The position numbers were made by a program, and so were the translations under genes. The notes beneath the pieces are model-generated. The model ran no database searches. It saw nothing but the letters and a program-made list of their open reading frames with translations, and was not told the DNA's origin. A stretch of DNA of 40,134 nucleotides, taken from NCBI GenBank assembly GCA_016930075.1, contig JAFGHS010000175.1, positions 1 through 40,134 on the forward strand, read 5' to 3'. Below are positions 1 through 40,134 of the stretch, one piece after another. Position 1 is the first letter of the stretch; each line of letters starts with the position of its first letter. Source of the stretch: Deltaproteobacteria bacterium. GTDB lineage: Bacteria; Desulfobacterota; Syntrophia; Syntrophales; JAFGHS01.

Positions 1-919
1 CGCTGCCGCTCACAACGCCGACGTTTACCTGTCGGTTGGCAATGCCGGCGGAAGATGTAAGGTTAACGGCCTCGCCGTCGGTGACGGAGAGCCGATTCGT
101 CGCGTTATTGCCGGTAAATGAAGCAATGATGCTGTTATTGTCCGCCTTCAGGCTGAGGGTGTCCTCCAAAGTACCGTCCACAATCAGGGCGATGTCATTG
201 GTTCCGCTGAGAGCGGCAAAACCTATGGCTGATGGGTCGGCGCCGTCCGTGATGACGTTGTTGTACTGGGCCGTACCGACAAACAGGCCTGCATTACCGT
301 ATAGATCTGTGCCGGCGGCTGTCAGGACGGCCGTACCGGCATGGCTGCTGTCAAAGGTGAGTTCAATATCGCCCTGGACGGTCTGCACAGTCTTGTTGAG
401 GCCCGTATCCGCGTAAATGCTGTTGCCGCTGAGACTGACAGTCGATCCTGCGTACAGGCCATGGATGATGGTGGTCACCGTTGAGTCGCTCACTAAACTG
501 TAGGCCGTGACTGTTGTGTTTTCCTGGGCGCTGATGGATGTGAGGGCGCTGCCGACCGCATTTCCCGTTACGGCTAAAATATCCGTCGTCAAGATGGAAG
601 TGTTGAGCGGAGGGGCAAAGACTGCGTAGATTGTGCTGCCGTCATGAGTCGAACTGATAATAGCGGCTGGTGTAATTTCCACTGAATCTACACCGGCGGA
701 GATGGTCGCACTGAAATTTGCCGAGGAGTTAGCCTGATAGGTACTGTTGATCACGCTGCTGTTGGCAATGACCGGCACCGTGCTGACGTCATAGGTTACA
801 TCAGCCTGTGTCGTACCGACAGTCGTTGTCAGAATTGTGAGCATGCATAGAAGGGCATAACTTTTCCATATCAGCTTACGAAGATAACGAATTTTTTGTT
901 TTGATTTTAAGTTATTCAT
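1..919 (-). CDS. Partial gene, N-terminal 306 aa; the ORF runs off the window start. Large secreted Thr/Ser/Gly/Asn/Val-rich beta-repeat protein, possibly a surface or adhesin-like protein and a candidate cargo of the adjacent CsgG-like channel
   Basis: Manual minus-strand translation from the ATG at 917-919. It is absent from the ORF track because it has no in-window stop. Translation: MNNLKSKQKIRYLRKLIWKSYALLCMLTILTTTVGTTQA/DVTYDVSTVPVIANSS... Basic n-region, hydrophobic core and an AXA-type signal-peptidase site. The rest is low-complexity T/S/G/N/V sequence with alternating polar/hydrophobic residues. A GGAG-type SD lies upstream. The antisense ORF 36..416 is an artefact of this gene. Confidence 0.6.
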   Translation of the reverse strand, partial: MNNLKSKQKIRYLRKLIWKSYALLCMLTILTTTVGTTQADVTYDVSTVPVIANSSVINSTYQANSSANFSATISAGVDSVEITPAAIISSTHDGSTIYAVFAPPLNTSILTTDILAVTGNAVGSALTSISAQENTTVTAYSLVSDSTVTTIIHGLYAGSTVSLSGNSIYADTGLNKTVQTVQGDIELTFDSSHAGTAVLTAAGTDLYGNAGLFVGTAQYNNVITDGADPSAIGFAALSGTNDIALIVDGTLEDTLSLKADNNSIIASFTGNNATNRLSVTDGEAVNLTSSAGIANRQVNVGVVSGS

Positions 920-1020
920 TTTCGATTCCCCTCTCTCCAAATGCTTGAGACATAAAGTATTAATTATCATGACGACAGGTTTCCATAATTCGATGTTTAT
1001 TTTTTCCGTTTGCCCTTTGA

Positions 1021-2046
1021 TCAGCGCTGAAGTGCAGGGTTCTGCTTATTATCATCAACTTTCATTTCACCCGATGATGCCGGCAGAGGGACAGGGCGCG
1101 TTTTCTGCTCTTCATCATATCCTTTCCGCTGCATATCGGATATTTTCTGTTTTTCATCATTGTCTTTTTCTTCTTCCGAATAAGTCCAGGTTTCCGGCAT
1201 GCAACTGTCCGGCGAAACGCCTGTCGCATCGGCAATGAGATGCATGACCGACTCTTCGATGATGGCCCTTATTCCCAACTGTAATGGCTCCTGGCTTTTG
1301 TTACCGATATTGACGTCAAAAAGCTGGTCCGTTCCGTTGGCGCCGAAAAACCTGAAGAGCTCGAATCCCACTTCGAAGCCGGTGAACTGTTTCTGAAGAC
1401 TGACGGCGGAGACGACTTCAAGAGTCTGGGTTTTGACCAGTCGCAGGTCGGCGGCAACGCTCATGGTGTAAACGCGCGCCTTGGGGCCGATCTGACTCAC
1501 CCGGAATTCCGCGCCGCCGGACTGGATGTTGTAGTTCAACTCCGTAATGCCGCCCAAGATCGTATAGTCCGACTTCTTGACCGATCCCCCGAAATAGGGC
1601 ATCCAGGGCACCGTTTGGCCGTTGACTTCATGGTTCTGACCGTCTCCCAACTGTTTTAACCCGATATATCGGAGTTCGGCGTCCGTGACGCGCATGTCGA
1701 AGCGATCATGGATGTTTACGGCGTCTTTGAGTTTATAGAGGCCGGAAAAAAGCATGAGCGAGCCGCCCTGGGTGATAGCCGCGCCTTCCGACTCGGAGGC
1801 CTTGCCGGTGTAATCCTTGATTTCGCCGACGGCGATCTGGAGCTTCTTGCCGGCGAGATTATCGCTTAAGGCAAGCTTCCGGTTATAGCAGGACATGGCG
1901 CCGTCGAGCGGCGTTTTGTTGGCGCGGACAGACGGACCGACGACCAGTGGCGCTTCTCCGGAGGCCAGCTGCTCCATGCTGATGGAGGCGCATCCGGTTA
2001 TTGACAAAGTCATCAGAACTGCAAGTGCAAGTATGCGGAAGTTCAT
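1021..2046 (-). CDS. csgG: CsgG-family outer-membrane secretion lipoprotein (curli production assembly/transport component CsgG-like) with a ~80-aa charged Lys/Glu/Asp-rich C-terminal extension
   Basis: MNFRILALAVLMTLSITGCAS has a lipobox (ITG-C). The central region aligns by eye with E. coli CsgG blocks: LDGAMSCYNRK...IAVGEIKDYTGK, ILGGITELNYNIQSGGAEFRVSQIG...VYTMSVAADLRLVKTQTLEVV, FTGFEVGFELFRFFG. GGAGGTG SD 8 nt upstream. The start ATG at 2044-2046 sits 2 nt downstream of the upstream gene's stop codon (2049-2051), so the two are translationally coupled. Confidence 0.8.
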   Translation of the reverse strand: MNFRILALAVLMTLSITGCASISMEQLASGEAPLVVGPSVRANKTPLDGAMSCYNRKLALSDNLAGKKLQIAVGEIKDYTGKASESEGAAITQGGSLMLFSGLYKLKDAVNIHDRFDMRVTDAELRYIGLKQLGDGQNHEVNGQTVPWMPYFGGSVKKSDYTILGGITELNYNIQSGGAEFRVSQIGPKARVYTMSVAADLRLVKTQTLEVVSAVSLQKQFTGFEVGFELFRFFGANGTDQLFDVNIGNKSQEPLQLGIRAIIEESVMHLIADATGVSPDSCMPETWTYSEEEKDNDEKQKISDMQRKGYDEEQKTRPVPLPASSGEMKVDDNKQNPALQR

Positions 2047-2048
2047 TA

Positions 2049-2801
2049 TTATTCACCTCCGCTGTTGATCGGCGAACCGATGCTGCCGGACACAACATTG
2101 AAATGGCACGCCGAGCTGTCATAAATGGCGGAGGAAACATTACTGTTGTTCATATCCTGCGAAGAATTGAGAGCAACGCTCGCCCCGCCTCCCGTACCGG
2201 AAACCCCGGAAATATTGGACGAGAAGGTGTTGCCCGTGGCGGATGACGTCTGGGTGCTGCCGTCATTGCTCTGGGTCGTGTCGATCGAATTGGTGCCTCC
2301 GGCGGTCGAGGTGTTGCTTGCCACGTTGTCGTCGCCGGTTTGCGAGGTCAGCCCCGTATTGGACGTGGCGCCTCCCGATGTGATGGCGCCGGTGCCCGAA
2401 TTGCCGCTGGCGGATGATGACGTGCTGGAGCTCACCCCGATGGAAGGCGATGCGACGGGGGCATCCTGGGCGACGCTTCCCTGGTTTCCCAGGGCCTGGG
2501 ACGTCATGTTGCAGTCGATATAGGGCCCGGCAATGTTATAGTTGGTCGTGCTGTTGTAGGTGTTGCTGTATGTGTTGTAGTATCCCCCCTTGACCTTCAG
2601 AATAAAGTCAAGAACTGCGGCCTTCTGACTTCGTTCCGTCGTTGTTTCGAACTGCCAGGCCTGATTTTCGGAGAGGTCATTGGCCAGGGCTGCAAACGGG
2701 ACAACCGAGAATAGCGCAACGGCGGACATTAAGCATCCGGCCGCCCAAAATGGGGCGCGCCCCCAAAAGTGTTGAACGATACATCTGCAACTGTACCACA
2801 T
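2049..2801 (-). CDS. Secreted low-complexity protein, ~250 aa. The N-terminal region is N/Y/T-rich (GGYYNTYSNTYNSTTNYN) and the remainder is S/T/G/N-rich. Candidate CsgG-dependent secreted or amyloid-like subunit, or CsgF-like accessory
   Basis: The ORF track extends to 2840. I place the start at the ATG at 2799-2801 because a perfect AAGGAGG SD sits 8 nt upstream. The predicted N-terminus MWYSCRCIVQHFWGRAPFWAAGCLMSAVALFSVVPFAALA/NDL looks like a long signal peptide with an ALA-N cleavage site. Alternative starts are 2840 and 2729. Composition is extremely biased (S, T, G, N make up more than 60% of the C-terminal 170 aa). The stop lies 2 nt upstream of the csgG-like ATG. Confidence 0.55.
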   Translation of the reverse strand: MWYSCRCIVQHFWGRAPFWAAGCLMSAVALFSVVPFAALANDLSENQAWQFETTTERSQKAAVLDFILKVKGGYYNTYSNTYNSTTNYNIAGPYIDCNMTSQALGNQGSVAQDAPVASPSIGVSSSTSSSASGNSGTGAITSGGATSNTGLTSQTGDDNVASNTSTAGGTNSIDTTQSNDGSTQTSSATGNTFSSNISGVSGTGGGASVALNSSQDMNNSNVSSAIYDSSACHFNVVSGSIGSPINSGGE

Positions 2802-2886
2802 ATATGCGACCTCCTTAATCATAATTGTATTACATAGCAATATTTCGACCAGCGTCGTTGCAAAAACTCATAAACTTTTTCATCAC

Positions 2887-2902
2887 TGCAAAAAATGTTC
2901 CT
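2887..2902 (-). promoter_or_regulatory. Candidate sigma54 (-24/-12) promoter reading toward the low-complexity/CsgG operon
   Basis: Minus-strand sequence AGGAAC-ATTTT-TTGCA against the consensus TGGCAC-N5-TTGCA. The GG and GC dinucleotides and the spacing are correct, and TTGCA is perfect. It lies ~85 nt upstream of the 2801 start. A perfect 10-bp palindrome CTGCATGCAG at 3035-3044, ~135 bp further upstream, is a plausible enhancer-binding-protein site. An NtrC-family activator is encoded immediately upstream on the same strand. Confidence 0.35.
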
Positions 2903-3164
2903 ATGCGTTGAATACATTAGAAAATATGAGGGCCGAAAAAAAATCGAATTCGCATCGGATCGCCTATGATTCGAGTATCACGGTCATATCAGCTTAATCG
3001 GGGCAGGATAATATCTATGTATTTAATTATTCGACTGCATGCAGGAGCAGTAAATGATGAGAAACAGGTTAATTAGGGAAATGCGACTATGGAATCATTT
3101 CCATTATTAGCGGGAGGGTTATCCCTATCAACGGGTTAAGAGTAAAGGAGTATATGAGAGGCGA

Positions 3165-4706
3165 TCACCCCTTCCCGGATGTCCTGCTCCGGGATTTGCC
3201 TTCACCATGACGGAGAGGCAATGTAACTGTAAAGATGCTTCCCCGGCCTTCCACGCTCTCGACGTCGATGCTCCCATGATGCTGCTTCACGATGGAATAA
3301 CACAGAGGCAAGCCAAGGCCGGCCCCTTTTCCTATGGGAGATGTTGTATAGAAAGGATCAAAAATCTTGACGATATCCCGAGCAGGGATGCCGCAGCCGG
3401 TATCCGCAATCCGGGCATGAACCTGAGAACGGTCCGTTCTTACGTCGATGTCGAGGCGGCCACCAGAGGGCATGGCATGGATGGCATTTAAAAAAATATT
3501 CATAAAGACCTGCTGAAGCAGTGTGCCGACCCCTTCGATCATGACCGGCTTTTTGGGAAAAGAGGCGCGGATTTTGATATTGAAGAGGTTGGCCTGATAC
3601 GTCACGAGGGTCTGAGTCTCCTTGATCAGGGGAACAATGTCGATCAGGGGCTTCCGGGTCGTCGTGGAGGGATGGGCATATTTCAGCAGATTTTCGACGA
3701 TGTCCGAGGTTCGCCGGATGCCTTTGTATATCTTCTCGGCGCACTCACGGCGGAACTCCGGCGTTACATCTTCGTCTAAAAGAAACTGGGCGCTGGATGA
3801 GCAGATGGCCAGGGGGTTCCTGATCTCATGGGCAATGCCGCCTGCCATGACCCCGAGAGCGGCAAATTTCTGCGATTGATACATCTCCAGTTCATATTTT
3901 TGATGCTCCGTCAAATCCCGGCCTATGGCCACGATGCCCGTCGTCCGGTTATCGCTGTCCTTCAGGGGAGAAAAAACCCAGGAAACGGGGATCAATGCGC
4001 CCTTACGGGTCAGCAAGGGGCATTCTTTCATCCGGGTGAGGTCGCGGGCATCGGTATGACGAAGAATCTCCTCAATGTCGCTGCGGTCTTCCTCGGCGAA
4101 AAGGTAGGCGAATCGGAGTTTCGCGGCTTCTGCCGGCAAATAACCGGAAAGCCTTTCCGCCGCTGGGTTCCATGTCAAAATCATGCCTTTTTTATCCACG
4201 GAGACAATGAGGTCGCTGGCGCTCTCCACAACGCCGGCCAGATGCCGTTCCATTCGCCGCATCTCTTCCATGAGATGCGCCTGTTCCGTCACATCGTTTA
4301 CCAGAATAAGGGTTCCTTCAACACGGTTCTCCCGGATAAAAGGCAGGAGGCGGTAATAGAAAAAGCGGACGGGCATTCCTGCGGCGCGATAGGTCATGCG
4401 CTCCCATTTGGATGGTTGTATATTCACAATGACCTGACGAATGCGCTCGACAATATCCATCTGGTCGATGAGGTCCGAGGGGAATATCTCTTCAAGGCGA
4501 CGGCCGATAGTTTCTTCTGTGGTCTTTTGGCTGTATTCCAGAACGGAGCGGTTTACCGAAATAATGCGCAAATGCTTGTCGACGAGGAGGACGGCTGAGG
4601 GAATGGCGTCAAGAAGCATGGTGTAGAGATGTTTGTATCTGCCTGAATGTTCGCGCCTTTCAGAAACAGTGGGCTTCGTTTTCACACCGACTTTTTTTTC
4701 TGTCAT
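3165..4706 (-). CDS. Cytoplasmic PAS-PAS sensor histidine kinase (NtrB/AtoS-like HisKA + HATPase_c)
   Basis: H-box AHEIRNPL. G-boxes DTGCGIP and GKGAGLGL. Two PAS-like segments and no TM helices. I prefer the ATG at 4704-4706 (MTEKK...), which has an AAGGA SD, over the TTG at 4742 used by the ORF track. It lies downstream of and on the same strand as the sigma54 activator. Confidence 0.9.
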   Translation of the reverse strand: MTEKKVGVKTKPTVSERREHSGRYKHLYTMLLDAIPSAVLLVDKHLRIISVNRSVLEYSQKTTEETIGRRLEEIFPSDLIDQMDIVERIRQVIVNIQPSKWERMTYRAAGMPVRFFYYRLLPFIRENRVEGTLILVNDVTEQAHLMEEMRRMERHLAGVVESASDLIVSVDKKGMILTWNPAAERLSGYLPAEAAKLRFAYLFAEEDRSDIEEILRHTDARDLTRMKECPLLTRKGALIPVSWVFSPLKDSDNRTTGIVAIGRDLTEHQKYELEMYQSQKFAALGVMAGGIAHEIRNPLAICSSSAQFLLDEDVTPEFRRECAEKIYKGIRRTSDIVENLLKYAHPSTTTRKPLIDIVPLIKETQTLVTYQANLFNIKIRASFPKKPVMIEGVGTLLQQVFMNIFLNAIHAMPSGGRLDIDVRTDRSQVHARIADTGCGIPARDIVKIFDPFYTTSPIGKGAGLGLPLCYSIVKQHHGSIDVESVEGRGSIFTVTLPLRHGEGKSRSRTSGKG

Positions 4707-4800
4707 GTGTTTTTTCCTTATGTCCGGCGAACAGGCCGTCAAATCCTTCTTTATGAAAGGGGCTTTCCTGCAATTGTCTCAATAGAAAAAAATATCCGCG

Positions 4801-6228
4801 TCATTCTGCCTGTGTCTCGTCGTCATCTCTGCCGATTTGCTCAATGCCGTACTTCTTTGCCTTTGTGTGAATGGTTTTGTAATCGACCCGCAACAATCTT
4901 GCCGCACGGGCCTTGTTGCCGCCGGTAAATTTGAGCACCTCCGTGAGCACCTCTTTTTCCACGGCAAGCACGCTCTGCTGGACAATCTCGCTTAAGGAGG
5001 CATTCTTCCAGGGCGTTCCCTGAATTTTCGGGGAAAAGGCCATGCCCGGCGTTGCCGCCCGCTTGATATTGAGATCCTTTTCGGTGATGACGTCGACGGC
5101 CACCAGGGCCGCCCGCCGGATTACCGAGCGAAGCTGGCGCACGTTTCCCGGCCAGTTGTATGACATCAGTTTTTCCACCGCCTCGTCCGTGAATCCGGTA
5201 ATCGTTTTTTCCAGTTCTGCATTGGCCGAATCAAGAAAACGTTTGGCCAGATAAGGGATATCATCTTTTCTTTCGCGGAGAGCGGGAATGTGGATGGTAA
5301 ACTCGCTTAAGCGATAATAAAGATCGCTGCGAAACTCCTCGCGCAGCACCATTTCCTGGAGGTCCTGGTTGGTGGCCACAATGAGCCGGAGATCGACCGG
5401 CACGGCCTTGACGCCGCCTACCCGGTAGATCTTCCGGTCCTGGAGGACCCGCAGGCACTTTGCCTGGGAACCGGCGGGCATGTTACCAATTTCATCCATA
5501 AGAAGGGAGCCGCCGTGGGCCAGTTCAAATTTCCCCAGCTTTTGTCGCTCCGCTCCGGTGAACGATCCCTTTTCATGACCGAACAATTCACTCTCCAGGA
5601 GGTTTTCGGGAATGGCGCCGCAATCGACGGCCAGGAAAGGTCCCTTCGCACGGGGGCTGTCGTCGTGAATGGCCCTGGCGACCAGTTCTTTTCCCGTGCC
5701 CGTTTCGCCGAGAATGACTACGGAAAAATCGGATTTTGCCACACGGTGAATCTCCGCCACCAGGCGGGCGACCTTGTCGCTCGGCCCCATTTGCTCGATG
5801 AGGCTGTAGTTGCCGCTGTAACGGGTATCGATGGATTTTATGTTCTTCTTTAACTGTCTCTCCGCCAGGGCGCGGCGAACGATCCAGAGCACTTCGTCAT
5901 TATCGAAGGGTTTGGAAAGGTAATCATAAGCCCCTTCCTTCATGGCCGTAACGGCTTGACGGCTTTCGGCGTATGCCGTAATCAGGATCACAGGCAGATC
6001 ATTGTCGATCTGCTTGATTTTTTTGAGGACCTCCATGCCGTCAAGACCCGGCATGCGCACGTCGAGGAGGACGGCATCCGGTTTTTCGGAGAACAGCTTC
6101 TGCATGGCTTCCCGTCCGTCCGAAGCGGTGAAGACCCGGAAACCGTCCTTTTTGAGGAGAAGCCTCAGAATATTCCTGATTTCTTCCTCGTCATCGACAA
6201 CGAGGATGCCTGTGTCCTGCTCCGTCAC
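4801..6228 (-). CDS. Sigma54-dependent response regulator, NtrC/AtoC family (REC + AAA+ sigma54-interaction + Fis-type HTH)
   Basis: N-terminal ILVVDDEEEIRNIL...DAVLLDVRMPGLDG receiver. Walker A GETGTGKE. GAFTGA-type loop ESELFGHEKGSFTGA. C-terminal HTH ARLLRVDYKTIHTKAKKYGI. The first possible start is a GTG at 6226-6228, immediately preceded by an in-frame TAA. Confidence 0.92.
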   Translation of the reverse strand: MTEQDTGILVVDDEEEIRNILRLLLKKDGFRVFTASDGREAMQKLFSEKPDAVLLDVRMPGLDGMEVLKKIKQIDNDLPVILITAYAESRQAVTAMKEGAYDYLSKPFDNDEVLWIVRRALAERQLKKNIKSIDTRYSGNYSLIEQMGPSDKVARLVAEIHRVAKSDFSVVILGETGTGKELVARAIHDDSPRAKGPFLAVDCGAIPENLLESELFGHEKGSFTGAERQKLGKFELAHGGSLLMDEIGNMPAGSQAKCLRVLQDRKIYRVGGVKAVPVDLRLIVATNQDLQEMVLREEFRSDLYYRLSEFTIHIPALRERKDDIPYLAKRFLDSANAELEKTITGFTDEAVEKLMSYNWPGNVRQLRSVIRRAALVAVDVITEKDLNIKRAATPGMAFSPKIQGTPWKNASLSEIVQQSVLAVEKEVLTEVLKFTGGNKARAARLLRVDYKTIHTKAKKYGIEQIGRDDDETQAE

Positions 6229-6318
6229 TTATTTCCCCGTATTTCCTTCCGTTTTATAATTCGCGGTTTGCCGCTATTGCTGCATGTTGCCCTGTCCCGA
6301 AAGATTGCGGTTGCGGGA

Positions 6319-6549
6319 TCAGTGCTCAGGAATGTTTTGACGCTTATATGGAATTATGACGGTCCTGTCAAGGGCGAGTGGAACAGGACCGGTGCGGTGC
6401 CGGAGGGCCTTATCCGCCGCCTCGAAATCATGGCGCGTACCGGCTGTGTAAAAAAGGGCCCGTGGGAGAACCTGCCGGATATTCCGTTCACAGGGCTCCG
6501 CATCCGGGGCGGCCTCTTCGGCTATCAGAATGCGAAGCATTTTAGCCAT
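6319..6549 (-). CDS. Hypothetical small protein (~76 aa), function unknown
   Basis: ORF with a strong AAGGAG SD 7 nt before the second ATG (MAKMLRILIAEEAAPDAEPCERN...). No motif recognised. It sits between the two-component operon and the sigma-region-4-like gene. Confidence 0.35.
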   Translation of the reverse strand: MAKMLRILIAEEAAPDAEPCERNIRQVLPRALFYTAGTRHDFEAADKALRHRTGPVPLALDRTVIIPYKRQNIPEH

Positions 6550-6623: not shown

Positions 6624-6908
6624 TTACATCAAATCCCAGTCGCTGTCCGGGGAGGCGAAATCCTTGAGTTGGTTTCTTCTTTTCTTGTGCTGCAACTTTT
6701 TCAGGGCCTTGGCTTCGATCTGGCGGATTCGCTCTCTCGTTACGCCCATCATCTCGCCGACTTCTTCAAGGGTGAAAGGACCGTAATTGCATGCGACCCA
6801 TGTGCAATTAAGGAAATCTTCATTCTTCAGACGCCATTCGCAGGTCGTCTCATGACAGATTTCGGAAATAAGATTGCCGTGCTTTTTGCATCGATATTGA
6901 TTGATCAA
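6624..6908 (-). CDS. Small Cys/His-rich protein with a C-terminal sigma70 region 4.2 helix-turn-helix that nearly copies the primary sigma factor
   Basis: The C-terminus [33 protein letters not shown] closely matches RpoD region 4.2 ([28 protein letters not shown]). The N-terminal 45 aa carry C7, H10, C18, H19, C23, C35 and C40, a possible Zn-binding module. The start is a TTG at 6906-6908 with an AGGAG SD 9 nt upstream. There is no in-frame ATG before residue 52. Confidence 0.6.
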
Positions 6909-10800: not shown

Positions 10801-10850
10801 GACAAAAATTTATCACGGGCATGCAACCTTTTCCATGGCGGGAGGTCATT

Positions 10851-11807
10851 ATGAGTAATGAAAGATACATGGATGACGAGACCTTGCGGCAGATTCAATT
10901 ATTCCGGTATGTGGACTTCGATGCGGTAAGGGGCTTGATTGACACCTGTATGACCGTCACGTTGCAGGCTGAAGAAATTCTTCTCACGCCGGGCGATATG
11001 AACAGCACGGTTTATCTGTTGGTGTCGGGCCGCTTAAGGGTGCATCTCAATTCTTTGGACGACGAACCGATCATGATCGGCGAAGGCGAGAGCGTGGGAG
11101 AGATGTCGGTGATCGATCACCAGCCCGTTTCCGCTTACGTCGTTGCCGATGAACCTTGCGTCTTGCTTGCCATGAATGAAGAAGCCCTCTGGTCTCTCGT
11201 CAGATCCTCTCATGCCGCAGCCTGTAATCTGTTGTTTACGCTCACCGGCAGGTTGAGAAGCACCGATAAGCTGATCAATGGAGACAATCTTGCCCTGGAA
11301 GACGTCTACTCGCACTATTGCAGCGTCGATGCCCTTACGGGGCTTCACAGCCGTTACTGGATCGACAATATGTTCGCCCGCCTCTTCAGCCGGTCTTTAA
11401 ATAACAGCGAGCCCATGTCCGTCATTTTGATTGATATTGATAAGTTTACACAATTCAACGAATTGTACGGCTCCACTCAAGGCGACCGCATCCTTTACTA
11501 CATGGCCCATACATTGACGGCGAATCTGCTGCCGACGGAAATCATTGCCCGCTCGGGGGATGATGAATTTTTGGTCCTGTTGCCGGGGTGGGGAATCGAC
11601 AATGCAAGGCTGGTAGCCGAACGTTTGCTGAATGCCGTCGTCAATACGGTTCCGGCAATGCCGGACGGTACGGTCATGCCTCATCCGACCATTTCGGTGG
11701 GTATTGCCCAGATGCAGCCGGAGCAAACGATTGACCAGCTCATTGCTGCGGCGGAAGACGCCCTTTCCCGCGCCAGGATGATCGGGGGAAACAGCATATC
11801 GGAGTAG
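10851..11807 (+). CDS. Cyclic-nucleotide-binding (cNMP/CAP-like) domain fused to a GGDEF domain whose signature is degenerate (SGDDEF)
   Basis: The N-terminal beta-roll region has ...GDMNSTVYLLVSGRLRV...GEGESVGEMSVI... as in CAP/cNMP-binding domains. The C-terminal GGDEF fold (LTGLHSRYW..., DIDKFTQFNELYG) carries RSGDDEF where the active-site motif is normally RxGGDEF, so the second Gly is replaced by Asp. I prefer the ATG at 10851, which has a GGAGG SD, over 10821. Confidence 0.85.
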   Translation: MSNERYMDDETLRQIQLFRYVDFDAVRGLIDTCMTVTLQAEEILLTPGDMNSTVYLLVSGRLRVHLNSLDDEPIMIGEGESVGEMSVIDHQPVSAYVVADEPCVLLAMNEEALWSLVRSSHAAACNLLFTLTGRLRSTDKLINGDNLALEDVYSHYCSVDALTGLHSRYWIDNMFARLFSRSLNNSEPMSVILIDIDKFTQFNELYGSTQGDRILYYMAHTLTANLLPTEIIARSGDDEFLVLLPGWGIDNARLVAERLLNAVVNTVPAMPDGTVMPHPTISVGIAQMQPEQTIDQLIAAAEDALSRARMIGGNSISE

Positions 11808-17643: not shown

Positions 17644-19437
17644 ATGAAAATAAAAGTCCTCGCTGTCGAAGATGAGATCATCAATCTGAAGCTGCTGAAA
17701 GCCATCTTTGAAGCTGAAGGCTGGGATGTCCTGACGGCTGAAAACGGCAAGGACGCCCTGGAGATTGCGCGGGCTGAACTGCCCGACCTGATCTTGTCCG
17801 ACATCCTCATGCCGGTCATGGACGGCTATGCCTTATGCCGTCAATGCAAATCTGACGAGACGTTGAAGCATATCCCGTTTGTCTTTTACACAGCCACCTA
17901 TACGGAACCGCAGCATGAACAGTTTGCGCTGGATATCGGCGTGGACAGATTTATTCGCAAGCCTTTGGAACCGCATACGCTGGTAGAAATCCTGATGGAT
18001 GTCCTGGGAGAGAAGAAAACGGTCGCCCCCGCTGTCTCGAAACCCCTGGGGGAAGAGATGGAGTTTTTCAGACGTCACAATGAAGTTCTGTTCGGCAAGC
18101 TTGAACAGAAAATGCTGGACCTGGAGGCGGCAAATCAGGAACTCAGGGCATTGGAGGAAAAATATCGCCTCAGTTTTGATCATGTAACGGATATTATCTG
18201 CATGATCGGCACGGATCTCAGGATTTTAAGCATAACCCCGAGCGTGGAGAGGATGCTGGGGTACAAATCACAGGATTTTATCGATAAAATTCTTTCTGAT
18301 TTAGGCCATATCTTTACGCCGGAATCATTAAAACAGGCGATAACCAAAATCAACCTGTTGTTAAAGGGTGAAACCATTGCAATGGCGATTCATGAGTTTA
18401 TCGACCGGGACGGACACGTCAAGATCGGCGAAGTCGGCGGATCTCCCATCATGCGCGACGGAAAAACCACCGGCGCTGTTTTCGTTGTCCGCGATATCAC
18501 GACGCGCAGGCGGGCGGAGGACGCATTGGCGGAGGAGAGGCAGAGGCTTGCCTACATACTCGAGGGCACCAACGTCGGTACATGGGAGTGGAATGTTCAG
18601 ACAGGAGAAATGATATGCAATAACCGTTGGGCGGAGATCATCGGATATACAATGGATGAGCTTGCTCCGGTCTCAATCGATACCTGGGTCAGGTTCATTC
18701 ATCCGGATGACCTCAATATCATGATTGATTTGCTTGATCAGCATTTCAAGAAGAAATTATTGTACTACGAATTGGAAGCGCGCATTCGCCATAAAAGCGG
18801 GGATTGGGTCTGGGTGCTCGATAACGGCAAAGTTGTGTCATGGACGGATGACGGGACACCGCTTATCATGTCCGGCACGCATCAGGACATTACCCGGCGG
18901 AAGCTGGCTGAAGAGCAGATACAGCATATGGCCACCCATGACGGATTGACCGATCTGCCGAGTCTGAGACTGGCCAGAGACCGGCTGTCCATGTCCCTCA
19001 GCATGGCTCGCCGGCAGCGAAACATGACGGCCGTGATGTTTCTCGATCTGGATGAGTTCAAAGCGGTCAATGATACTTTCGGCCATGATGCCGGGGACGA
19101 TGTGCTGAAAGAGGTAGCCAAGCGATTGCTTTCCTGCATTCGTGAAACCGATACGGCCGCTCGCGTCGGAGGAGATGAATTTCTTGTTGTTGCAACCGGA
19201 CTTCATGATGCTGAGAATGCTGTGCAGATAGCGGAGAATATCATCCGTCTTGTGTCCCAGCCGATTGTCATCGACAGCCGGCAAACCGTTGTGACTGCCA
19301 GCCTCGGCATTTCTCTTTTCCCCCAAAACGGCGGCGACGTCGAGGGCCTGATCAAACTGGCAGACGACGCCATGTATGAAGTCAAGAAGTCAACCCGAAA
19401 CGGATACGGCTTTGCCAAAACCGTCCACGCCCCTTAG
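17644..19437 (+). CDS. Response-regulator diguanylate cyclase: REC-PAS-PAS-GGDEF
   Basis: Receiver domain (KVLAVEDEIINLKLL...DLILSDILMPVMDG...K). Two PAS segments. A canonical GGDEF domain with RVGGDEFLVV and a DxLT motif. A GAGAAGGG SD follows the upstream stop by 30 nt. Confidence 0.9.
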   Translation: MKIKVLAVEDEIINLKLLKAIFEAEGWDVLTAENGKDALEIARAELPDLILSDILMPVMDGYALCRQCKSDETLKHIPFVFYTATYTEPQHEQFALDIGVDRFIRKPLEPHTLVEILMDVLGEKKTVAPAVSKPLGEEMEFFRRHNEVLFGKLEQKMLDLEAANQELRALEEKYRLSFDHVTDIICMIGTDLRILSITPSVERMLGYKSQDFIDKILSDLGHIFTPESLKQAITKINLLLKGETIAMAIHEFIDRDGHVKIGEVGGSPIMRDGKTTGAVFVVRDITTRRRAEDALAEERQRLAYILEGTNVGTWEWNVQTGEMICNNRWAEIIGYTMDELAPVSIDTWVRFIHPDDLNIMIDLLDQHFKKKLLYYELEARIRHKSGDWVWVLDNGKVVSWTDDGTPLIMSGTHQDITRRKLAEEQIQHMATHDGLTDLPSLRLARDRLSMSLSMARRQRNMTAVMFLDLDEFKAVNDTFGHDAGDDVLKEVAKRLLSCIRETDTAARVGGDEFLVVATGLHDAENAVQIAENIIRLVSQPIVIDSRQTVVTASLGISLFPQNGGDVEGLIKLADDAMYEVKKSTRNGYGFAKTVHAP

Positions 19438-19496: not shown

Positions 19497-21842
19497 CTAC
19501 GATATCGTCATCGATACGGTTGCCGCAGCCTCATTTCCGCCGACCGTTGCCGGGAAGCGCCACTTTCTAACCTGATCCATCAAGCACGTATGGTATTTTG
19601 CATCCCTGATCTTGCCGGATATGATCTCCACATTTTTGACCGTACCGTCCGGGTTGATGGTCAGAGTGATTTTTATTATTCCTTGATAATTTAAACCCGA
19701 CAAGCACTTTTCTATATTACTGATCTCAACTTCCGCTACTTTGATAATGTCTTCCTTCGTTAAGCCTTTTTCAACCGTAGCGCTGATAATACTCACCTTT
19801 CTTGTTTTATCCTTTTTCTCGTGAGAAGAAGACTTAACTTCTTGCACGGCATCTGCCTCAGAAAGACAATTTTCCGTTTTTACCCTCATGCTGCCGATCA
19901 TGCTTTTTTGTACGGCCGGAGCCGCAGCGTAGTTTCCGCGGCCGCCGACCGCATAATCCGAAACACCTTCGGGCAGCGGCAGGGGCTTCTTGACGGTTGT
20001 CCATTTCCCGTTCACGTTGCGCACTTCATTATCCACGGCCACAAAGGATGTGTATGCGGTCAGAAGATTATAGCCGAGGCCCAGTTCGGTAATTTCCTTT
20101 ACCCGCTTGCTGTCGTTGCGGAGGTTGTTGTAATCGGATAATAACATGATGCGATGGCGCGCCCAGAGATATTTCAGTGCCGTATTGTCTGGGGATGCCC
20201 GATAATTTTCCACCTTAATCGCTTCTGAATACTTACCCTCGCCGGAAATGCCGCACAACGTAATCGTTCCTTTGGGATTGCCGCGCCATTTGCCGAAAAC
20301 GAGGACCGGACGTTCGGCCAATACATCAGGAATTGCCACCGGCTCTACATCATAGACATCAAACCCGTTGAAACGGACCTTCGCCTGCGTTAAGACCGGC
20401 GACTGGATCATTTTGCGGAAACGTTCCGCCTCGGCCTGCGCCGTATCCGGTTTTGTGATGATAAAGGGCTCGCCCATGCCGACGTGCGCCATGCCTTCGA
20501 TAAGGTGGCGGTTGACGCTGGAGCCGATGCCGAAGGCAAACATATTGGCTTTGTTTAAGTTATTACGGATCAGGTCAAATGCTTCTTCCTCGACGCTGAC
20601 ATAGCCGTCGGTGACAATGACAACGGTCCGGGAAAAATCATCGTCCTTCTTAAGCGATAGGGCGCGCTTGAGCGCAGGCAGCAGTTCCGTGCCGCCGCCG
20701 CCCTGCTGGCGTTCAATGGTATTGATGGCCCTCTGAATGTTTTCCCTGGTTGCAGGCAGTGATTCCTCCGCCATCAAAGAAGAGGCGCCGGAAAAAAGCA
20801 GAACATTGAATTTGTCCGTCTTACGGAGATTGCCGATCAGATTGGTCAGGAGCTTTTTGGAAATTTCCAGAGGAAAGCCATGCATCGAACCGGAAACATC
20901 CACAATAAAGATATACTCACGCCCCGGAATATGGCCGCTTACGACTCTTCTCGGCGGCTGCATCATGAGGGCAAAGAAGTTTTCCTTTTCACCCCGCAAA
21001 AGCAACAGACCGGTCTGAATTTTATGGCCGTCGAGACGGTAGCGCAGACTGTAATCGCGATTGCCGCTGCGGGATTCGGTTTTATCCAAAGACACCTTTG
21101 CCTGTGATGCGTTCTCATAGACCGTCTTCACTTTATGTGATGAACAGGTTAAATCTTTAATGGGCATTCCGGCGTTAATGGCCACGGAAATATTGAAGGT
21201 GGTCGTGGATAATTCACCCTGGCGCAGATAAGGATTTTCCACCCAATGCCCGGAAGGCGAAGCGTTTGACGCCTTTTGATTGGAATAGCGTGGTCCTACG
21301 ACGGTGGGGTAAACAAATTCATAGACCCGATCTGTGGGAACAAGCAGTTCCGTATATTTGAGTTCAACCTTGATTTCATCGCCCGGCATGATGTTGGCGA
21401 CATTCATCTGAAAGACATTGGGGCGCTGCTGCTCCAGTAGGGAAGCGTTCTTCCCCGCATCCCGGGCCTGCTCATAATCGCGCCGCGCCTCATCACGCTT
21501 TTTGATTTTCGCCTCAATTACCCTCTTGCCGATCGTCATTTTCATGCCGTAAACGGCGGCGCGGGTGGATGCCGGGAAAACATAAATGGCTTCCATCGGC
21601 TTTTCCCCTGCATTTTTATAGACCTGTGTGACAATCACGTCCGCGATGACGCCGGAAATATTGACGGAAGCGTGAGTGGATTTCAAGGGCAGCCGATCCG
21701 CCGCCGGATTGTCGCTGTTGACAAAGAAATAGGGGGATAAAGTCCGGTCCTCGGATATCTGCTGCTGACTGAAAGCCTGCGCGCAGCAACTAACGGATAC
21801 GAATGCCAAAACGACAGTTAACCAACATTTAACCTTTTTCAT
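19497..21842 (-). CDS. Secreted VIT (vault inter-alpha-trypsin) + von Willebrand factor A protein with a C-terminal TonB_C-like domain
   Basis: Signal peptide MKKVKCWLTVVLAFVSVSCCAQA. VIT region (SVNISGVIADVIVTQVYKN...). vWA MIDAS motif DVSGSM plus downstream T and D residues. The C-terminal ~90 aa (GIIKITLTINPDGTVKNVEIISG...LMDQVRKWRFPATVGG..ATVSMTIS) resemble the TonB C-terminal domain. I place the start at 21840-21842 with a GGAGG SD 7 nt upstream, not at 21878. Confidence 0.85.
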   Translation of the reverse strand: MKKVKCWLTVVLAFVSVSCCAQAFSQQQISEDRTLSPYFFVNSDNPAADRLPLKSTHASVNISGVIADVIVTQVYKNAGEKPMEAIYVFPASTRAAVYGMKMTIGKRVIEAKIKKRDEARRDYEQARDAGKNASLLEQQRPNVFQMNVANIMPGDEIKVELKYTELLVPTDRVYEFVYPTVVGPRYSNQKASNASPSGHWVENPYLRQGELSTTTFNISVAINAGMPIKDLTCSSHKVKTVYENASQAKVSLDKTESRSGNRDYSLRYRLDGHKIQTGLLLLRGEKENFFALMMQPPRRVVSGHIPGREYIFIVDVSGSMHGFPLEISKKLLTNLIGNLRKTDKFNVLLFSGASSLMAEESLPATRENIQRAINTIERQQGGGGTELLPALKRALSLKKDDDFSRTVVIVTDGYVSVEEEAFDLIRNNLNKANMFAFGIGSSVNRHLIEGMAHVGMGEPFIITKPDTAQAEAERFRKMIQSPVLTQAKVRFNGFDVYDVEPVAIPDVLAERPVLVFGKWRGNPKGTITLCGISGEGKYSEAIKVENYRASPDNTALKYLWARHRIMLLSDYNNLRNDSKRVKEITELGLGYNLLTAYTSFVAVDNEVRNVNGKWTTVKKPLPLPEGVSDYAVGGRGNYAAAPAVQKSMIGSMRVKTENCLSEADAVQEVKSSSHEKKDKTRKVSIISATVEKGLTKEDIIKVAEVEISNIEKCLSGLNYQGIIKITLTINPDGTVKNVEIISGKIRDAKYHTCLMDQVRKWRFPATVGGNEAAATVSMTIS

Positions 21843-21996
21843 ACATAACCTCCTCTGTAAGATATTTCGTATTATCAAAATGTTCGGCCTTTTTTTTCGA
21901 TTTCAGACTATTAGACAAAGGAGGCCGCAAAAAAGTTCCCGGTTTTTTTTAAGCCCCGTTTTCCTGCTTTTTCTCCATATCTTTCTTCTTTCTTCC

Positions 21997-24460: not shown

Positions 24461-25369
24461 TTATTGATTCCATATGTCTCGAACGATCCTCCAGGCGCCG
24501 TCGGGCTGCTTTCTGAGAATCATGAGATAATGACCGGAGATGTTTCTATTTTGCCCGCCCCCTGAGGGTTTGTCAACCCGGCTCCAGTCGCCGCTCAGAA
24601 AGGCCCAGTTGCCGAGCAGTTGTATGTTGCCGGTCTTAAGTTCAAAGGTTGAACTGACATGGGAGAAGAATTTTTCGTAACGCGCCTTTATGCTGTTTCG
24701 GCCGACGACGGACGGTTCTCCCGGCGGCATCCAGACGGCGTCGTACATCAGGAGACCTGCTATCCCTGAAGCACTGCTTTCATTGTATGCGGCGTTAAAA
24801 CCCAATCTTACCTTGTCGATGGCCGCCTTTTCCCGGTCTGCGGCTTGCGGGCTTCCGGCGGTGGTGGTGTCGTGGAGGCGCTGGGCCTCGATTCCGGCGA
24901 TTTCGCGCATAAGGATGAATCCGAGACGCGGCCGTTTATCCATGATTTTGGCGAGTGTCGCATTGTTGAGCTCGATGATGTCGGTTTCCCGGAGAATAAT
25001 GACATCGACGAACAGCGGGCGATTCCTCAGAAATTCCGTTTCACCGATCAGGAACTGTCCCGAGAGGGTTGTAACGGGTTTACCGTCCGTCAAAACATCG
25101 GCGCTGCCGTCGAGTACGATAAACATTTTATCGATAACGTCGCCCTGCTTCGTCAGATACTCTCCGGATTTCATGCGGCGCAGCGAGGCCGCCGGCTTCA
25201 GCATGTTCCTGTCCGCATCGGTCAGTCCCGGGAAAATTTTTACTTGAGAAAGAGCCCTCGACAGCGCCAAATCACCGGTTTTACCTTCCACAGAGATGCA
25301 GCATGCCAGTATACCGAATACCGCTGCCGTAAATACCGACCAAAATCGGGTTTCCTTTTTAAAATACAT
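24461..25369 (-). CDS. Exported or membrane-anchored protein: cyclic-nucleotide-binding-like domain fused to a SnoaL/NTF2-like (DUF4440-type) domain
   Basis: N-terminal positive n-region (MYFKKETR) followed by a hydrophobic segment. cNMP-binding-like beta-roll (GEYLTKQGDVIDKMFIVLDGSADV...GETEF). C-terminal NTF2-like region (AIDKVRLGFNAAYNE...YDAVWMPPG...WRIVRDIWNQ). Start at 25367-25369 with an AGGAG SD. A TTGACA-17-TAATAT promoter candidate lies at ~25455-25488 on the minus strand. Confidence 0.75.
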   Translation of the reverse strand: MYFKKETRFWSVFTAAVFGILACCISVEGKTGDLALSRALSQVKIFPGLTDADRNMLKPAASLRRMKSGEYLTKQGDVIDKMFIVLDGSADVLTDGKPVTTLSGQFLIGETEFLRNRPLFVDVIILRETDIIELNNATLAKIMDKRPRLGFILMREIAGIEAQRLHDTTTAGSPQAADREKAAIDKVRLGFNAAYNESSASGIAGLLMYDAVWMPPGEPSVVGRNSIKARYEKFFSHVSSTFELKTGNIQLLGNWAFLSGDWSRVDKPSGGGQNRNISGHYLMILRKQPDGAWRIVRDIWNQ

Positions 25370-25604
25370 AGCATGTATCTCCTTTCGCACAATCAGTGAA
25401 GCGGACAAACAAATTCACGGATACTTATTGGAATAACATCACTTTCTTTACCGTTTAATGAATATTAGGAGAAGCGTCATTTTGTGTCAATAACAAAATG
25501 GCCCGGATGATGTCATGCATCTGGCGGGCGACAGAGAAGATACGTTATGGAAATCCGTTGATGCAATCAGGTGTGTTGCGCAGCCATCATGCCGGGGAAA
25601 CCTG

Positions 25605-37789: not shown

Positions 37790-38299
37790 GGTTGCTCGTA
37801 CCGCCTTTTGATGCCTCGTTCCGTTTAGTGATCCGAGGCATTTATCGGGATTTGCTTTTGCCATTTTGCGGGGCGAAGTATAAGAGCAAGACGACGACGA
37901 GTCAAGAATTTTAAAACGAATTTTAAAACGACAGAATATAAAACAACACTCTTCCTTCGCACCATAGCAAACAGGTTCGCACCAACCGGGCCATTTGCGG
38001 GAATTTCATAACCATGAAGCCGCCATCTTCATCGACGACGCGCCTGATGTCTTTCCTCGCGCAGCTTCACCTACTGCCGATTTCATCACAGACTTTGCGA
38101 CATATTTTGAATGTCTCTGATTTCTCCACGTTCACCTTCCCTTTTTCCCCTGTCGCTATGGGCTGATTGAAGAGATGGAAGATTCTCACAGTATATTCTC
38201 CCGACAAGTGTCACTGCTGCAGGCCCGGCTTGCCTGACCTGCCAACAGGAAGGATTTTTGAAGGTAACATTCCCCCTCCCCCATATATAAGTCCCTGAC

Positions 38300-38326
38300 C
38301 AGGATATGCGGCAGCCGCATATCCTG
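38300..38326. repeat. Perfect 13-bp inverted repeat (CAGGATATGCGGC-a-GCCGCATATCCTG) in the AT-rich spacer upstream of the OLD-family gene
   Basis: Read directly from the sequence. It is not positioned as a terminator for any called gene. It could be an operator, a recombination site or a boundary hairpin. Confidence 0.4.
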
Positions 38327-38562
38327 ATATTACAGACCAAATGTGCACGTCTGGTGGTGTTCTCATTTGAATTCTTTGTTGCTCATACAGAACATTCGTT
38401 CTATTAAGTCAGGAAAAACATTAATAATATGCCAGAATATCGATTACAATTGTCTTCAAAAATACTTGTCATTCTTTTGATGCTGTAGTATTTTCCAATT
38501 GCTTTTTTTCAGAAAGGAAACAAGCCGTATAATAATCGTTATATGAAGAAAGTGACTGAACT

Positions 38563-40131: not shown

Positions 40132-40134
40132 TCC

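Follow-up and report, generated by a model that had tools for sequence, protein, structure and literature searches.

Three co-oriented genes, all on the minus strand, occupy the left 2.85 kb of JAFGHS010000175.1, a complete contig of 40,134 nucleotides (nt) from a metagenome-assembled genome (MAG) labeled 'Deltaproteobacteria bacterium'; this whole contig is called the window in what follows. The middle gene encodes a CsgG/HfaB-family outer membrane lipoprotein, and we consider it probable (at a rough probability of 0.6) that the three open reading frames (ORFs) form an Hfa-type, i.e., curli-like or type VIII-like, cassette for the export and anchoring of a giant surface protein. The genes are:

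2049..2801, minus strand: ORF-A, 250 residues; secreted partner protein of an unannotated family
1021..2046, minus strand: ORF-B, 341 residues; CsgG/HfaB-family outer membrane lipoprotein, putative secretion channel
2..919, minus strand: ORF-C, first 306 residues of a giant secreted repeat protein that is truncated at the contig end

ORF-A and ORF-B are joined by TAA-TA-ATG, that is by a 2-nt spacer, and not by the stop/start overlap that a previous reading of the window (the sequence-only reading) had described; a GGAGG lies within the 3' end of ORF-A, and in the gene calls of the relatives the two genes overlap by up to 4 nt or are up to 12 nt apart. The spacer between ORF-B and ORF-C measures 101 nt, no terminator-like site was found between the cassette genes, and the intergenic space separating ORF-A from a sensor kinase gene is too small for further genes. 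Apart from the overlap, the length of a tail in ORF-B and the strand (all genes are on the minus strand), the previous description of the locus was accurate. It had seen no CsgA/CsgB curlin repeats and no CsgE, and indeed no curlin repeat, CsgE or CsgF model was matched when ORFs A to C were scanned down to E = 1, or when the other window ORFs of at least 150 residues and a 94-residue ORF at 6624-6908 were scanned at E 1e-3 to 1e-4. The CsgG-family module is therefore non-canonical in being without CsgA, CsgB, CsgE, and CsgF. ORF-C cannot be completed, since the sole other public record of the locus (Logan SRR13394437) stops at the same base.

The Putative CsgG/HfaB-Type Channel

ORF-B matches the Pfam family CsgG (PF03783) over residues 66-275 with 52.6 bits against a cutoff of 20.8, which agrees with the earlier assignment of the 1021-2046 product to the CsgG homologs. 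Its best NCBIfam model is that of Caulobacter HfaB (NF037935; 192 bits, E 1e-56), aligned over model positions 2-262 of 264; the same model gives 204 bits for the clade's Maricaulis copy and 139 bits for copies from Loktanella and Vibrio. The curli CsgG equivalog (NF011731) gives 45 bits, and its cutoff of 505 is not reached. Comparison with Escherichia coli CsgG by hhalign resulted in a probability of 97.9% and an E-value of 4.5e-13 over 234 columns, which begin at the lipobox cysteine and end with the last core helix, and phmmer against CsgG from the PDB aligned ORF-B residues 159-274 with CsgG 119-231, which we take to be the stretch that carries its two membrane hairpins. The AlphaFold2 (AF2) model of ORF-B is moderate, with a mean predicted local distance difference test (pLDDT) score of 59.9, approximately 69-94 in 10-residue blocks of the core and below 50 in the tail. 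Foldseek searches with this model nevertheless returned CsgG for all of the top 25 PDB matches, the best being 4uv2 (E 1.8e-13, target TM score 0.57). The features of ORF-B are:

1990-2007, minus strand: lipobox LSITGC with Cys19, read from the sequence
1762-1815, minus strand: equivalent of the constriction loop, residues 78-95
1462-1530 and 1342-1392, minus strand: stretches aligned to CsgG 119-231
1024-1221, minus strand: charged C-terminal tail of 66 residues (276-341), with 15 D/E and 10 K/R

Cys19 of the lipobox is shared by all 17 clade members compared. Compared with CsgG in the hhalign alignment, the constriction loop of ORF-B is four residues shorter, more polar and devoid of the Tyr and Phe of CsgG: N55 corresponds to Asn or Ser, F56 to Glu, and Y51 has no equivalent (for the CsgG constriction we assume the numbering Y51/N55/F56). 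A charged C-terminal tail had been noted previously and is present, although its length is 66 residues and not approximately 80; it is unconserved, and other members carry longer extensions at this place, some with OmpA or SPOR domains. ORF-B is thus a member of the CsgG family and has the CsgG fold, and by homology it would form an oligomeric (nonameric) outer membrane pore.

ORF-A, an Unannotated Family of Secreted Proteins

For ORF-A the most likely start codon is the ATG at 2801, which is preceded at a distance of 7 nt by AAGGAGG, rather than that of the longer ORF beginning with TTG at 2840; the stop codon is TAA at 2051..2049. From the N- to the C-terminus, its features are:

2682-2801, minus strand: signal-peptide-like residues 1-40, ending in AALA
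2640-2681, minus strand: mature N-terminal motif NDLSENQAWQFETT, invariant in the family; the mature protein begins here
2586-2639, minus strand: helix, from the AF2 model
2535-2588, minus strand: variable N/Y/T stretch GGYYNTYSNTYNSTTNYN, residues 72-89
within 2502-2519, minus strand: Cys97, invariant
2229-2276, minus strand: S/T/G/N-rich region with a Q-x-N-x-G motif
2106-2174, minus strand: module-like C-terminal motif and Cys232

The signal peptide, the N/Y/T-rich segment and the S/T/G/N tail that had been described for the upstream gene are all found in ORF-A, whose residues 100-250 consist of 25% S, 15% G, 12% T, and 10% N. Alignment of the family reveals, after the signal peptide, an invariant mature N-terminus A-N-x3-E-x3-W-Q-F-x-T, followed by the helix, the N/Y/T stretch, Cys97, the S/T/G/N-rich region, in which G-N, Q-x-N-x-G and A-L-N-S-x-Q motifs are conserved, and Cys232. 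The invariant residues of the family include E45, W49, F51, G73, C97, Q215, and C232, and conservation is at its maximum in the first 11 mature residues. The N/Y-rich stretch, which had been pointed out as amyloid-prone and which at the DNA level holds three copies of a 12-nt repeat (2548-2583), is the most length-variable and least conserved part of the alignment.

Orthologs with 55-63% identity occupy the same position in three related loci from Desulfobacterales and Nitrospiraceae MAGs (L002, L004, and L005), and an exhaustive search of 1.84 billion representative proteins identified 258 clusters of the family, 190 of them at E <= 1e-10. Their members are approximately 170-290 residues long, and all those checked are annotated as 'hypothetical', none bearing the name HfaA. 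ORF-A itself has no Pfam or NCBIfam match and no significant similarity to PDB chains, and 30 diverse family members scanned at E <= 10 matched no family, including curlin repeat, CsgF, and CsgE. In the AF2 model (121 sequences; mean pLDDT 49.7) only helix 54-71 is confident, with block pLDDT values of 76-90. The C-terminal segment Q-x-N-x-G-...-A-S-V-x-G-S resembles a piece of the giant module described below (hhalign E 7e-4, probability 26%), with on average 5.9 of 15 residues identical.

The Giant Repeat Proteins

The start codon of ORF-C is ATG 919, and its reading frame is still open where the window ends at base 1; the visible 306 residues contain 13% T, 12% S, and 11% A. Two features were recognized in this fragment:

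803-919, minus strand: signal peptide, residues 1-39, long and basic, read by eye
89-142, minus strand: module motif DNNSIIASFTGNNATNRL, the only module recognizable in the fragment with a hidden Markov model (HMM) of the modules

Using phmmer, a longer, 323-residue call of ORF-C (2..970) was aligned over its residues 27-321 (approximately residues 10-304 of the 306-residue ORF-C) with the 2771-residue protein of L004 at E 5e-57. The complete giants of the closest relatives, L004 and L005, measure 2771 and 2458 residues and match each other over their full length, and across the loci complete giants range from 980 to 2771 residues. These proteins begin with a signal-peptide-like segment (by eye), are A/S/G/T/V-rich and Cys-free, and are built from 10-24 degenerate modules of approximately 100 residues, detected by HMM, with the consensus ...GNSVAASAVGNSATN...VQTNSGAVTASVTG...GNSISASAVGNSA...; self-BLAST found no strong internal repeats in the giant protein. 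ORF-C belongs to no Pfam or NCBIfam family, and neither ORF-C nor the L004 giant matched the curlin-repeat model. The giants gave no family match at E <= 1 and, in the five scanned, no NCBIfam match; hence they carry no recognized domain for another secretion route. GenBank annotates the ortholog on a Variovorax paradoxus plasmid as an 'S-layer family protein'.

Conservation of the Three-Gene Arrangement

Synteny was counted in 81 related loci, including Desulfobacterota, Nitrospirota MAGs, and Alpha- and Betaproteobacteria. An ORF-A homolog detected by HMM lies directly upstream of the channel gene and on the same strand in 78 of them, at a distance of -7 to +140 nt, and a giant homolog, detected with an HMM of the conserved C-terminal module, follows the channel gene in 72. 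The order A-B-giant is thus present in the window and in 72-78 of the 81 loci, and as these loci are independent, the arrangement must be more than chance. ORF-A is a genuine gene family, tightly coupled to the channel gene, so that the condition named by the sequence-only reading for its own refutation does not apply. The sequence-only reading had proposed a comparison of gene neighborhoods of CsgG homologs; it bears out both the coupling of the low-complexity ORF and the conservation of the downstream partner, which had been described as a large signal-peptide repeat protein leaving the window. The cassette recurs with different flanking genes in the L002, L004, and L005 MAGs, and it is also found in 80 genome loci from Alpha- and Betaproteobacteria, the carriers including Sphingomonas, Novosphingobium, Variovorax (e.g., V. 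paradoxus), and Aureimonas (A. phyllosphaerae).

A fourth gene, coding for a secreted protein of approximately 200-280 residues, follows the giant gene in 21 of the approximately 81 related loci, both closest complete relatives included:

L004, 19567-20181: fourth gene
L005, 18701-19315: fourth gene
19 further loci: fourth gene

The family shares the motif Y-A-V-R-G-x-G-S-Q-S-C ... SWLxGYxSxxNR; the L004 copy has a C-terminal PG_binding_1 domain (Pfam), and a similar segment closes the consensus of the family. The fourth gene of the present genome probably lies just past the left end of the contig.

Some loci depart from the common arrangement. In several Novosphingobium/Sphingosinicella genomes the whole cassette is duplicated, with copies approximately 15-35 kb apart on one contig; these pairs are:

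L031/L032, L023/L053, L024/L045, and L025/L046: duplicated cassettes on sphingomonad contigs

In a Pseudomonadota MAG (L073, 8045-10099), an ORF-A homolog and an HfaB-like gene constitute a single ORF of 684 residues, which probably reflects a lost stop codon or a frameshift rather than a true fusion, since the internal lipobox is retained. The cassette of Frigidibacter sp. SD6-1 (L011, 3-10966) is permuted, the order being giant (>2800 residues), peptidoglycan-binding protein, ORF-A, and channel, with an unrelated 2392-residue ORF downstream.

Regulation and Genomic Context

The features of the remainder of the window relevant to this work are:

2836..2851, minus strand: candidate sigma-54 (-24/-12) promoter TGGTCGAAATATTGCT, preceding the ORF-A start by 35 nt
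3165..4742, minus strand: PAS/PAS histidine kinase (Pfam PAS_4, HisKA, HATPase_c)
4801..6228, minus strand: NtrC-type response regulator (Pfam Response_reg, Sigma54_activat with 225.8 bits, HTH_8)
10821-11807 (plus), 17644-19437 (plus) and 24461-25408 (minus): two GGDEF diguanylate cyclases and a further cNMP-binding protein
19497-21878, minus strand: VIT and von Willebrand A domain protein, 793 residues
22066-22420, plus strand: transfer-messenger RNA gene, 204 bits
29142-29215, minus strand: tRNA gene
38563-40131, plus strand: AAA_15/AAA_21-type ATPase, ending 3 bases before the contig end

The 320 nt that separate ORF-A from the sigma-54 activator operon contain the candidate promoter (TGG-N8-TTGCT); in the window as a whole, TGG-N8-TTGCW has two matches against 3.05 expected on both strands. 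The NtrC-type regulator combines a receiver, a sigma-54 AAA+ activator domain and a Fis helix-turn-helix, and would be a putative activator of this promoter; likewise, adjacency of its gene makes the PAS kinase a putative sensor for the cassette. Local two-component control of the cassette seems to be common but of varying type, as the regulator is NtrC-type here and LuxR-type in relatives.

The remaining 34 kb contain signaling and housekeeping genes. Genes for polysaccharide synthesis or export were found neither in the 40-kb window nor beside the cassette in L002, L004, and L005. One of the two GGDEF proteins has a cNMP-binding domain and the other receiver and PAS domains, and cyclic di-GMP signaling genes (EAL proteins) also flank the cassette on Variovorax and Brucella plasmids. 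At the far end of the window (38001-40134) the GC content is 0.42-0.45, compared with approximately 0.52 elsewhere, and this segment may be part of a mobile or defense island.

Proposed Mechanism and Alternative Explanations

Our proposal for pore function, substrate, docking, templating, and regulation is as follows. ORF-A, ORF-B, and ORF-C would all cross the inner membrane by Sec, and ORF-B, once lipidated at Cys19, would oligomerize in the outer membrane to give a pore like that of CsgG. ORF-C, with probably about 2500 residues of degenerate, presumably beta-rich modules of about 100 residues, would pass this pore unfolded and fold outside to form a long surface fibre, adhesin or layer. 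ORF-A may dock on the channel with the E-x3-W-Q-F motif of its free, invariant N-terminus and with the helix behind it, in functional analogy to CsgF or to the segment at the N-terminus of curlins that targets them, while its C-terminal Q-x-N-x-G-...-A-S-V-x-G-S segment may mimic a giant module and thereby nucleate or tether the giant at the surface, much as HfaA and HfaD co-assemble in Caulobacter. In close relatives a peptidoglycan-binding, presumably periplasmic protein is encoded after the giant gene, and its counterpart here probably lies past the contig end. The operon is probably transcribed from the sigma-54 promoter under the control of the adjacent PAS kinase and NtrC-type regulator.

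Several observations speak against this proposal or parts of it. ORF-B scores below the cutoff of the HfaB equivalog (192 versus 300 bits), and ORF-A and the giant are likened to HfaA and HfaD by gene order and published descriptions only, not by their sequences. Only 306 residues of ORF-C are visible here, the giant size being taken from relatives, and we know of no precedent for the export of a protein of more than 2000 residues through a CsgG-type pore. AF2 predicts neither a beta-solenoid nor any other fold for ORF-A. The mature N-terminus of ORF-A had been regarded as faintly CsgF-like; the hhalign probability for ORF-A versus E. coli CsgF is an insignificant 0.4%, and for E. coli CsgA and CsgB it is below 1% (the CsgA and CsgF queries were confirmed against the PDB; the CsgB query is provisional). 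The similarity between the ORF-A and giant motifs is weak and compositionally biased, and within a locus the C-terminal motif of ORF-A showed no covariation with the last module of the giant, 2203 of 5000 shuffles reaching the observed score. Finally, the sigma-54 motif rests on one consensus match, and relatives with LuxR-type two-component neighbors lack it.

A bolder version of the export proposal is that the cassette represents an undescribed and widespread branch of the type VIII (CsgG-type) systems, in which a nonameric lipoprotein pore would handle modular cargo of 1000-2800 residues and an E-x3-W-Q-F adaptor would both plug the pore and template or anchor the giant; we put this forward tentatively and would not bet on it. 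If it were true, CsgG-like pores would serve generally to export very large surface polymers, with HfaABD as one reduced offshoot.

An alternative that we regard as unlikely is that ORF-B is not a protein conduit but an outer membrane or periplasmic scaffold that anchors an exopolysaccharide or assists in its export, ORF-A and the giant being matrix or anchor proteins exported by another route. It follows proposals made for an additional holdfast-anchoring role of HfaB and for a CsgG-like cluster of Acinetobacter, and is favored by the findings that the hfaB deletion is more severe than the hfaA hfaD double deletion (bioRxiv 10.1101/2022.07.20.500906) and that deletion of the CsgG homolog in A. 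baumannii lowers poly-N-acetylglucosamine (PNAG) and Cup pili (bioRxiv 10.1101/2021.05.19.444899). The fold search with ORF-B also returned, at lower rank, PelC and GNA1162-type lipoproteins, and a Loktanella HfaB-like gene is situated near Wza/Wzc genes. Yet there are no polysaccharide synthesis or export genes in the window or beside the L002, L004, and L005 cassettes, and the presumed membrane-hairpin stretch of CsgG (119-231) aligns with ORF-B. Moreover, the partners have signal-peptide-like N-termini, the giant is without a known family and no other outer membrane route is evident for it, and the strict synteny of the three genes speaks for a protein system complete in itself.

Equally unlikely is the view of the cassette as an S-layer-type system, in which the giant would form a two-dimensional layer, ORF-B would export it and ORF-A would attach it to the cell. 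The A/S/G/T/V-rich, Cys-free composition of the giants seems typical of S-layer proteins. The S-layer label of the Variovorax plasmid giant points in the same direction, as does the limited similarity of HfaD to S-layer proteins and adhesins (PMC6707917). However, this label is an automatic annotation, the giants contain no SLH or other known S-layer family, and some sphingomonads carry two cassettes. In our view, a length of 1000-2800 residues with 10-24 degenerate modules seems more typical of fibrous adhesins.

Far less probable still is a divergent but true curli system, with ORF-A as a curlin-like amyloid subunit or CsgF ortholog that is secreted by a CsgG ortholog, next to an unrelated giant gene. 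ORF-B is a CsgG-family channel and ORF-A, Q/N/G/S-rich with Q-x-N-x-G motifs, does stand at the csgF position of a canonical locus, but the CsgG equivalog score (45 versus 505), the 30 ORF-A family members without a Curlin_rpt, CsgF, or CsgE match at E <= 10, the hhalign probabilities for CsgA, CsgB (provisional query), and CsgF of below 1%, the lack of a beta-solenoid in the AF2 model of ORF-A and the status of the giant gene as a conserved partner rather than a chance neighbor all stand against it; canonical curli were rejected on the same equivalog score and on the missing curlin-repeat, CsgE, and CsgF matches. That ORF-A is a spurious low-complexity frame in a coincidental arrangement, as its composition, its lack of a database family and its low AF2 confidence might suggest, is excluded for practical purposes by conservation, i.e., by 258 representative clusters, positions invariant across phyla, place and strand fixed in 78 of 81 loci, and a strong ribosome-binding site.

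Significance

Small curlin subunits are the known export substrates of CsgG-type pores, joined on genetic grounds by HfaA and HfaD. The export and anchoring cassette proposed here, with its unannotated partner family and its unusually large putative cargo, is new relative to the CsgG/HfaB (curli/holdfast-anchor) systems and is best filed as a variant of them. If true, it would extend the pathway to cargo approximately 10-20 times larger, introduce a new partner family where CsgF or HfaA stands in the known systems, and give a function to hundreds of proteins from environmentally and agriculturally common genera that are annotated as 'hypothetical protein', 'CsgG/HfaB family protein', or 'S-layer family protein'. 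It may also reveal the ancestry of HfaA and HfaD. The system is experimentally tractable, since Variovorax paradoxus, Novosphingobium, Sphingomonas, and Aureimonas phyllosphaerae are cultivable carriers.

Comparison With Known Systems

Our literature searches, in one of which papers on hFABP obscured HfaB, found no work on this cassette, and only that on Caulobacter Hfa and the Acinetobacter cluster. The Acinetobacter/Neisseria cluster, consisting of a CsgG homolog and two lipoproteins, one of them a GNA1162 homolog, resembles the present cassette in being a small, widespread and poorly understood CsgG/HfaB-family operon with matrix and biofilm phenotypes. It differs in its partners, which there are two small lipoproteins and here a W-Q-F protein that is not a lipoprotein and a giant repeat protein. 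No lipobox was found in ORF-A or ORF-C. Neither these two nor the relatives of the giant gave a Pfam or NCBIfam match, so that none belongs to a known lipoprotein-partner family; DUF4810 and DUF799, which we assume to be the families of the Acinetobacter/Neisseria-type partners, were not matched.

Enterobacterial curli share with the cassette the CsgG fold, the lipobox, the CsgG 119-231 stretch aligned with ORF-B, and a gene for a small secreted protein immediately upstream of the channel gene, i.e., at the csgF position. A repeat-protein gene also stands beside the channel gene in both cases, as in the canonical curli locus of an Azospirillum plasmid, where the gene at the ORF-A position carries the annotation CsgF and the channel gene is followed by curlin-repeat genes. 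From the gene positions in the Azospirillum and Hfa loci, ORF-A occupies the CsgF/HfaA slot and the giant the repeat-subunit slot. On the other hand, the cassette has no curlin repeats, CsgE, CsgF, or CsgC, the constriction loop of ORF-B is four residues shorter and lacks Tyr and Phe, the N-terminal motif of ORF-A is distinct with no detectable similarity to CsgF, and the putative cargo is 10-20 times the size of CsgA.

More distant HfaB-like genes (29-35% identity) with an ORF-A-type upstream protein were found on other plasmids. Upstream of a Loktanella gene (34% identity) lies a small protein with the ORF-A motif ANGLGEGRPWDFRT (hmmsearch E 2e-11), and upstream of a Brucella gene (29% identity) a protein with the ORF-A N-terminal motif (E 3e-8). 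Small partners of 222-428 residues with Q-x-G-x-N-x-A-N or A-T-A-V-G-N-N-x-S repeats accompany the distant HfaB-like genes of Loktanella (L087, 9310-11793) and Vibrio/Photobacterium plasmids (L088/L091, 8795-9463 / 5810-6541), and the Loktanella locus also contains the Wza/Wzc polysaccharide export genes. These loci may be intermediate between Hfa-type and giant-cargo cassettes.

In Caulobacter crescentus, the CsgG-like lipoprotein HfaB is reported to be required for HfaA and HfaD to reach the surface; HfaA itself is described as curlin-like, its multimers resisting sodium dodecyl sulfate and depending on HfaD (PMC6707917; bioRxiv 10.1101/2022.07.20.500906; 10.1101/523142). HfaD has limited similarity to S-layer proteins and adhesins (PMC6707917), and the gene order hfaA-hfaB-hfaD is conserved in Caulobacterales (10.1101/523142). 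The present cassette is alike in its order of a small secreted protein, a CsgG-like lipoprotein and a repeat or adhesin-like protein, and in that HfaA is described as curlin-like and ORF-A carries Q/N/G-rich repeats, and HfaD as S-layer- or adhesin-like and a giant relative is labeled 'S-layer family'. HfaD measures a few hundred residues, compared with 1000-2800 for the third protein here. The hosts differ as well, a Desulfobacterota MAG here and a stalked alphaproteobacterium there, and the cassette has no holdfast polysaccharide (hfs) genes in the 40-kb window, while part of its clade possesses the additional, peptidoglycan-binding fourth gene. HfaB is the best-scoring curated model for ORF-B (192 bits over the full length, below its cutoff). 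The curli-like secretion module with different cargo proposed by the sequence-only reading thus stands as a CsgG-family module, but its nearest kin is another: since the channel is HfaB-like (192 versus 45 bits), the nearest known system is hfaA-hfaB-hfaD of Caulobacter rather than curli.

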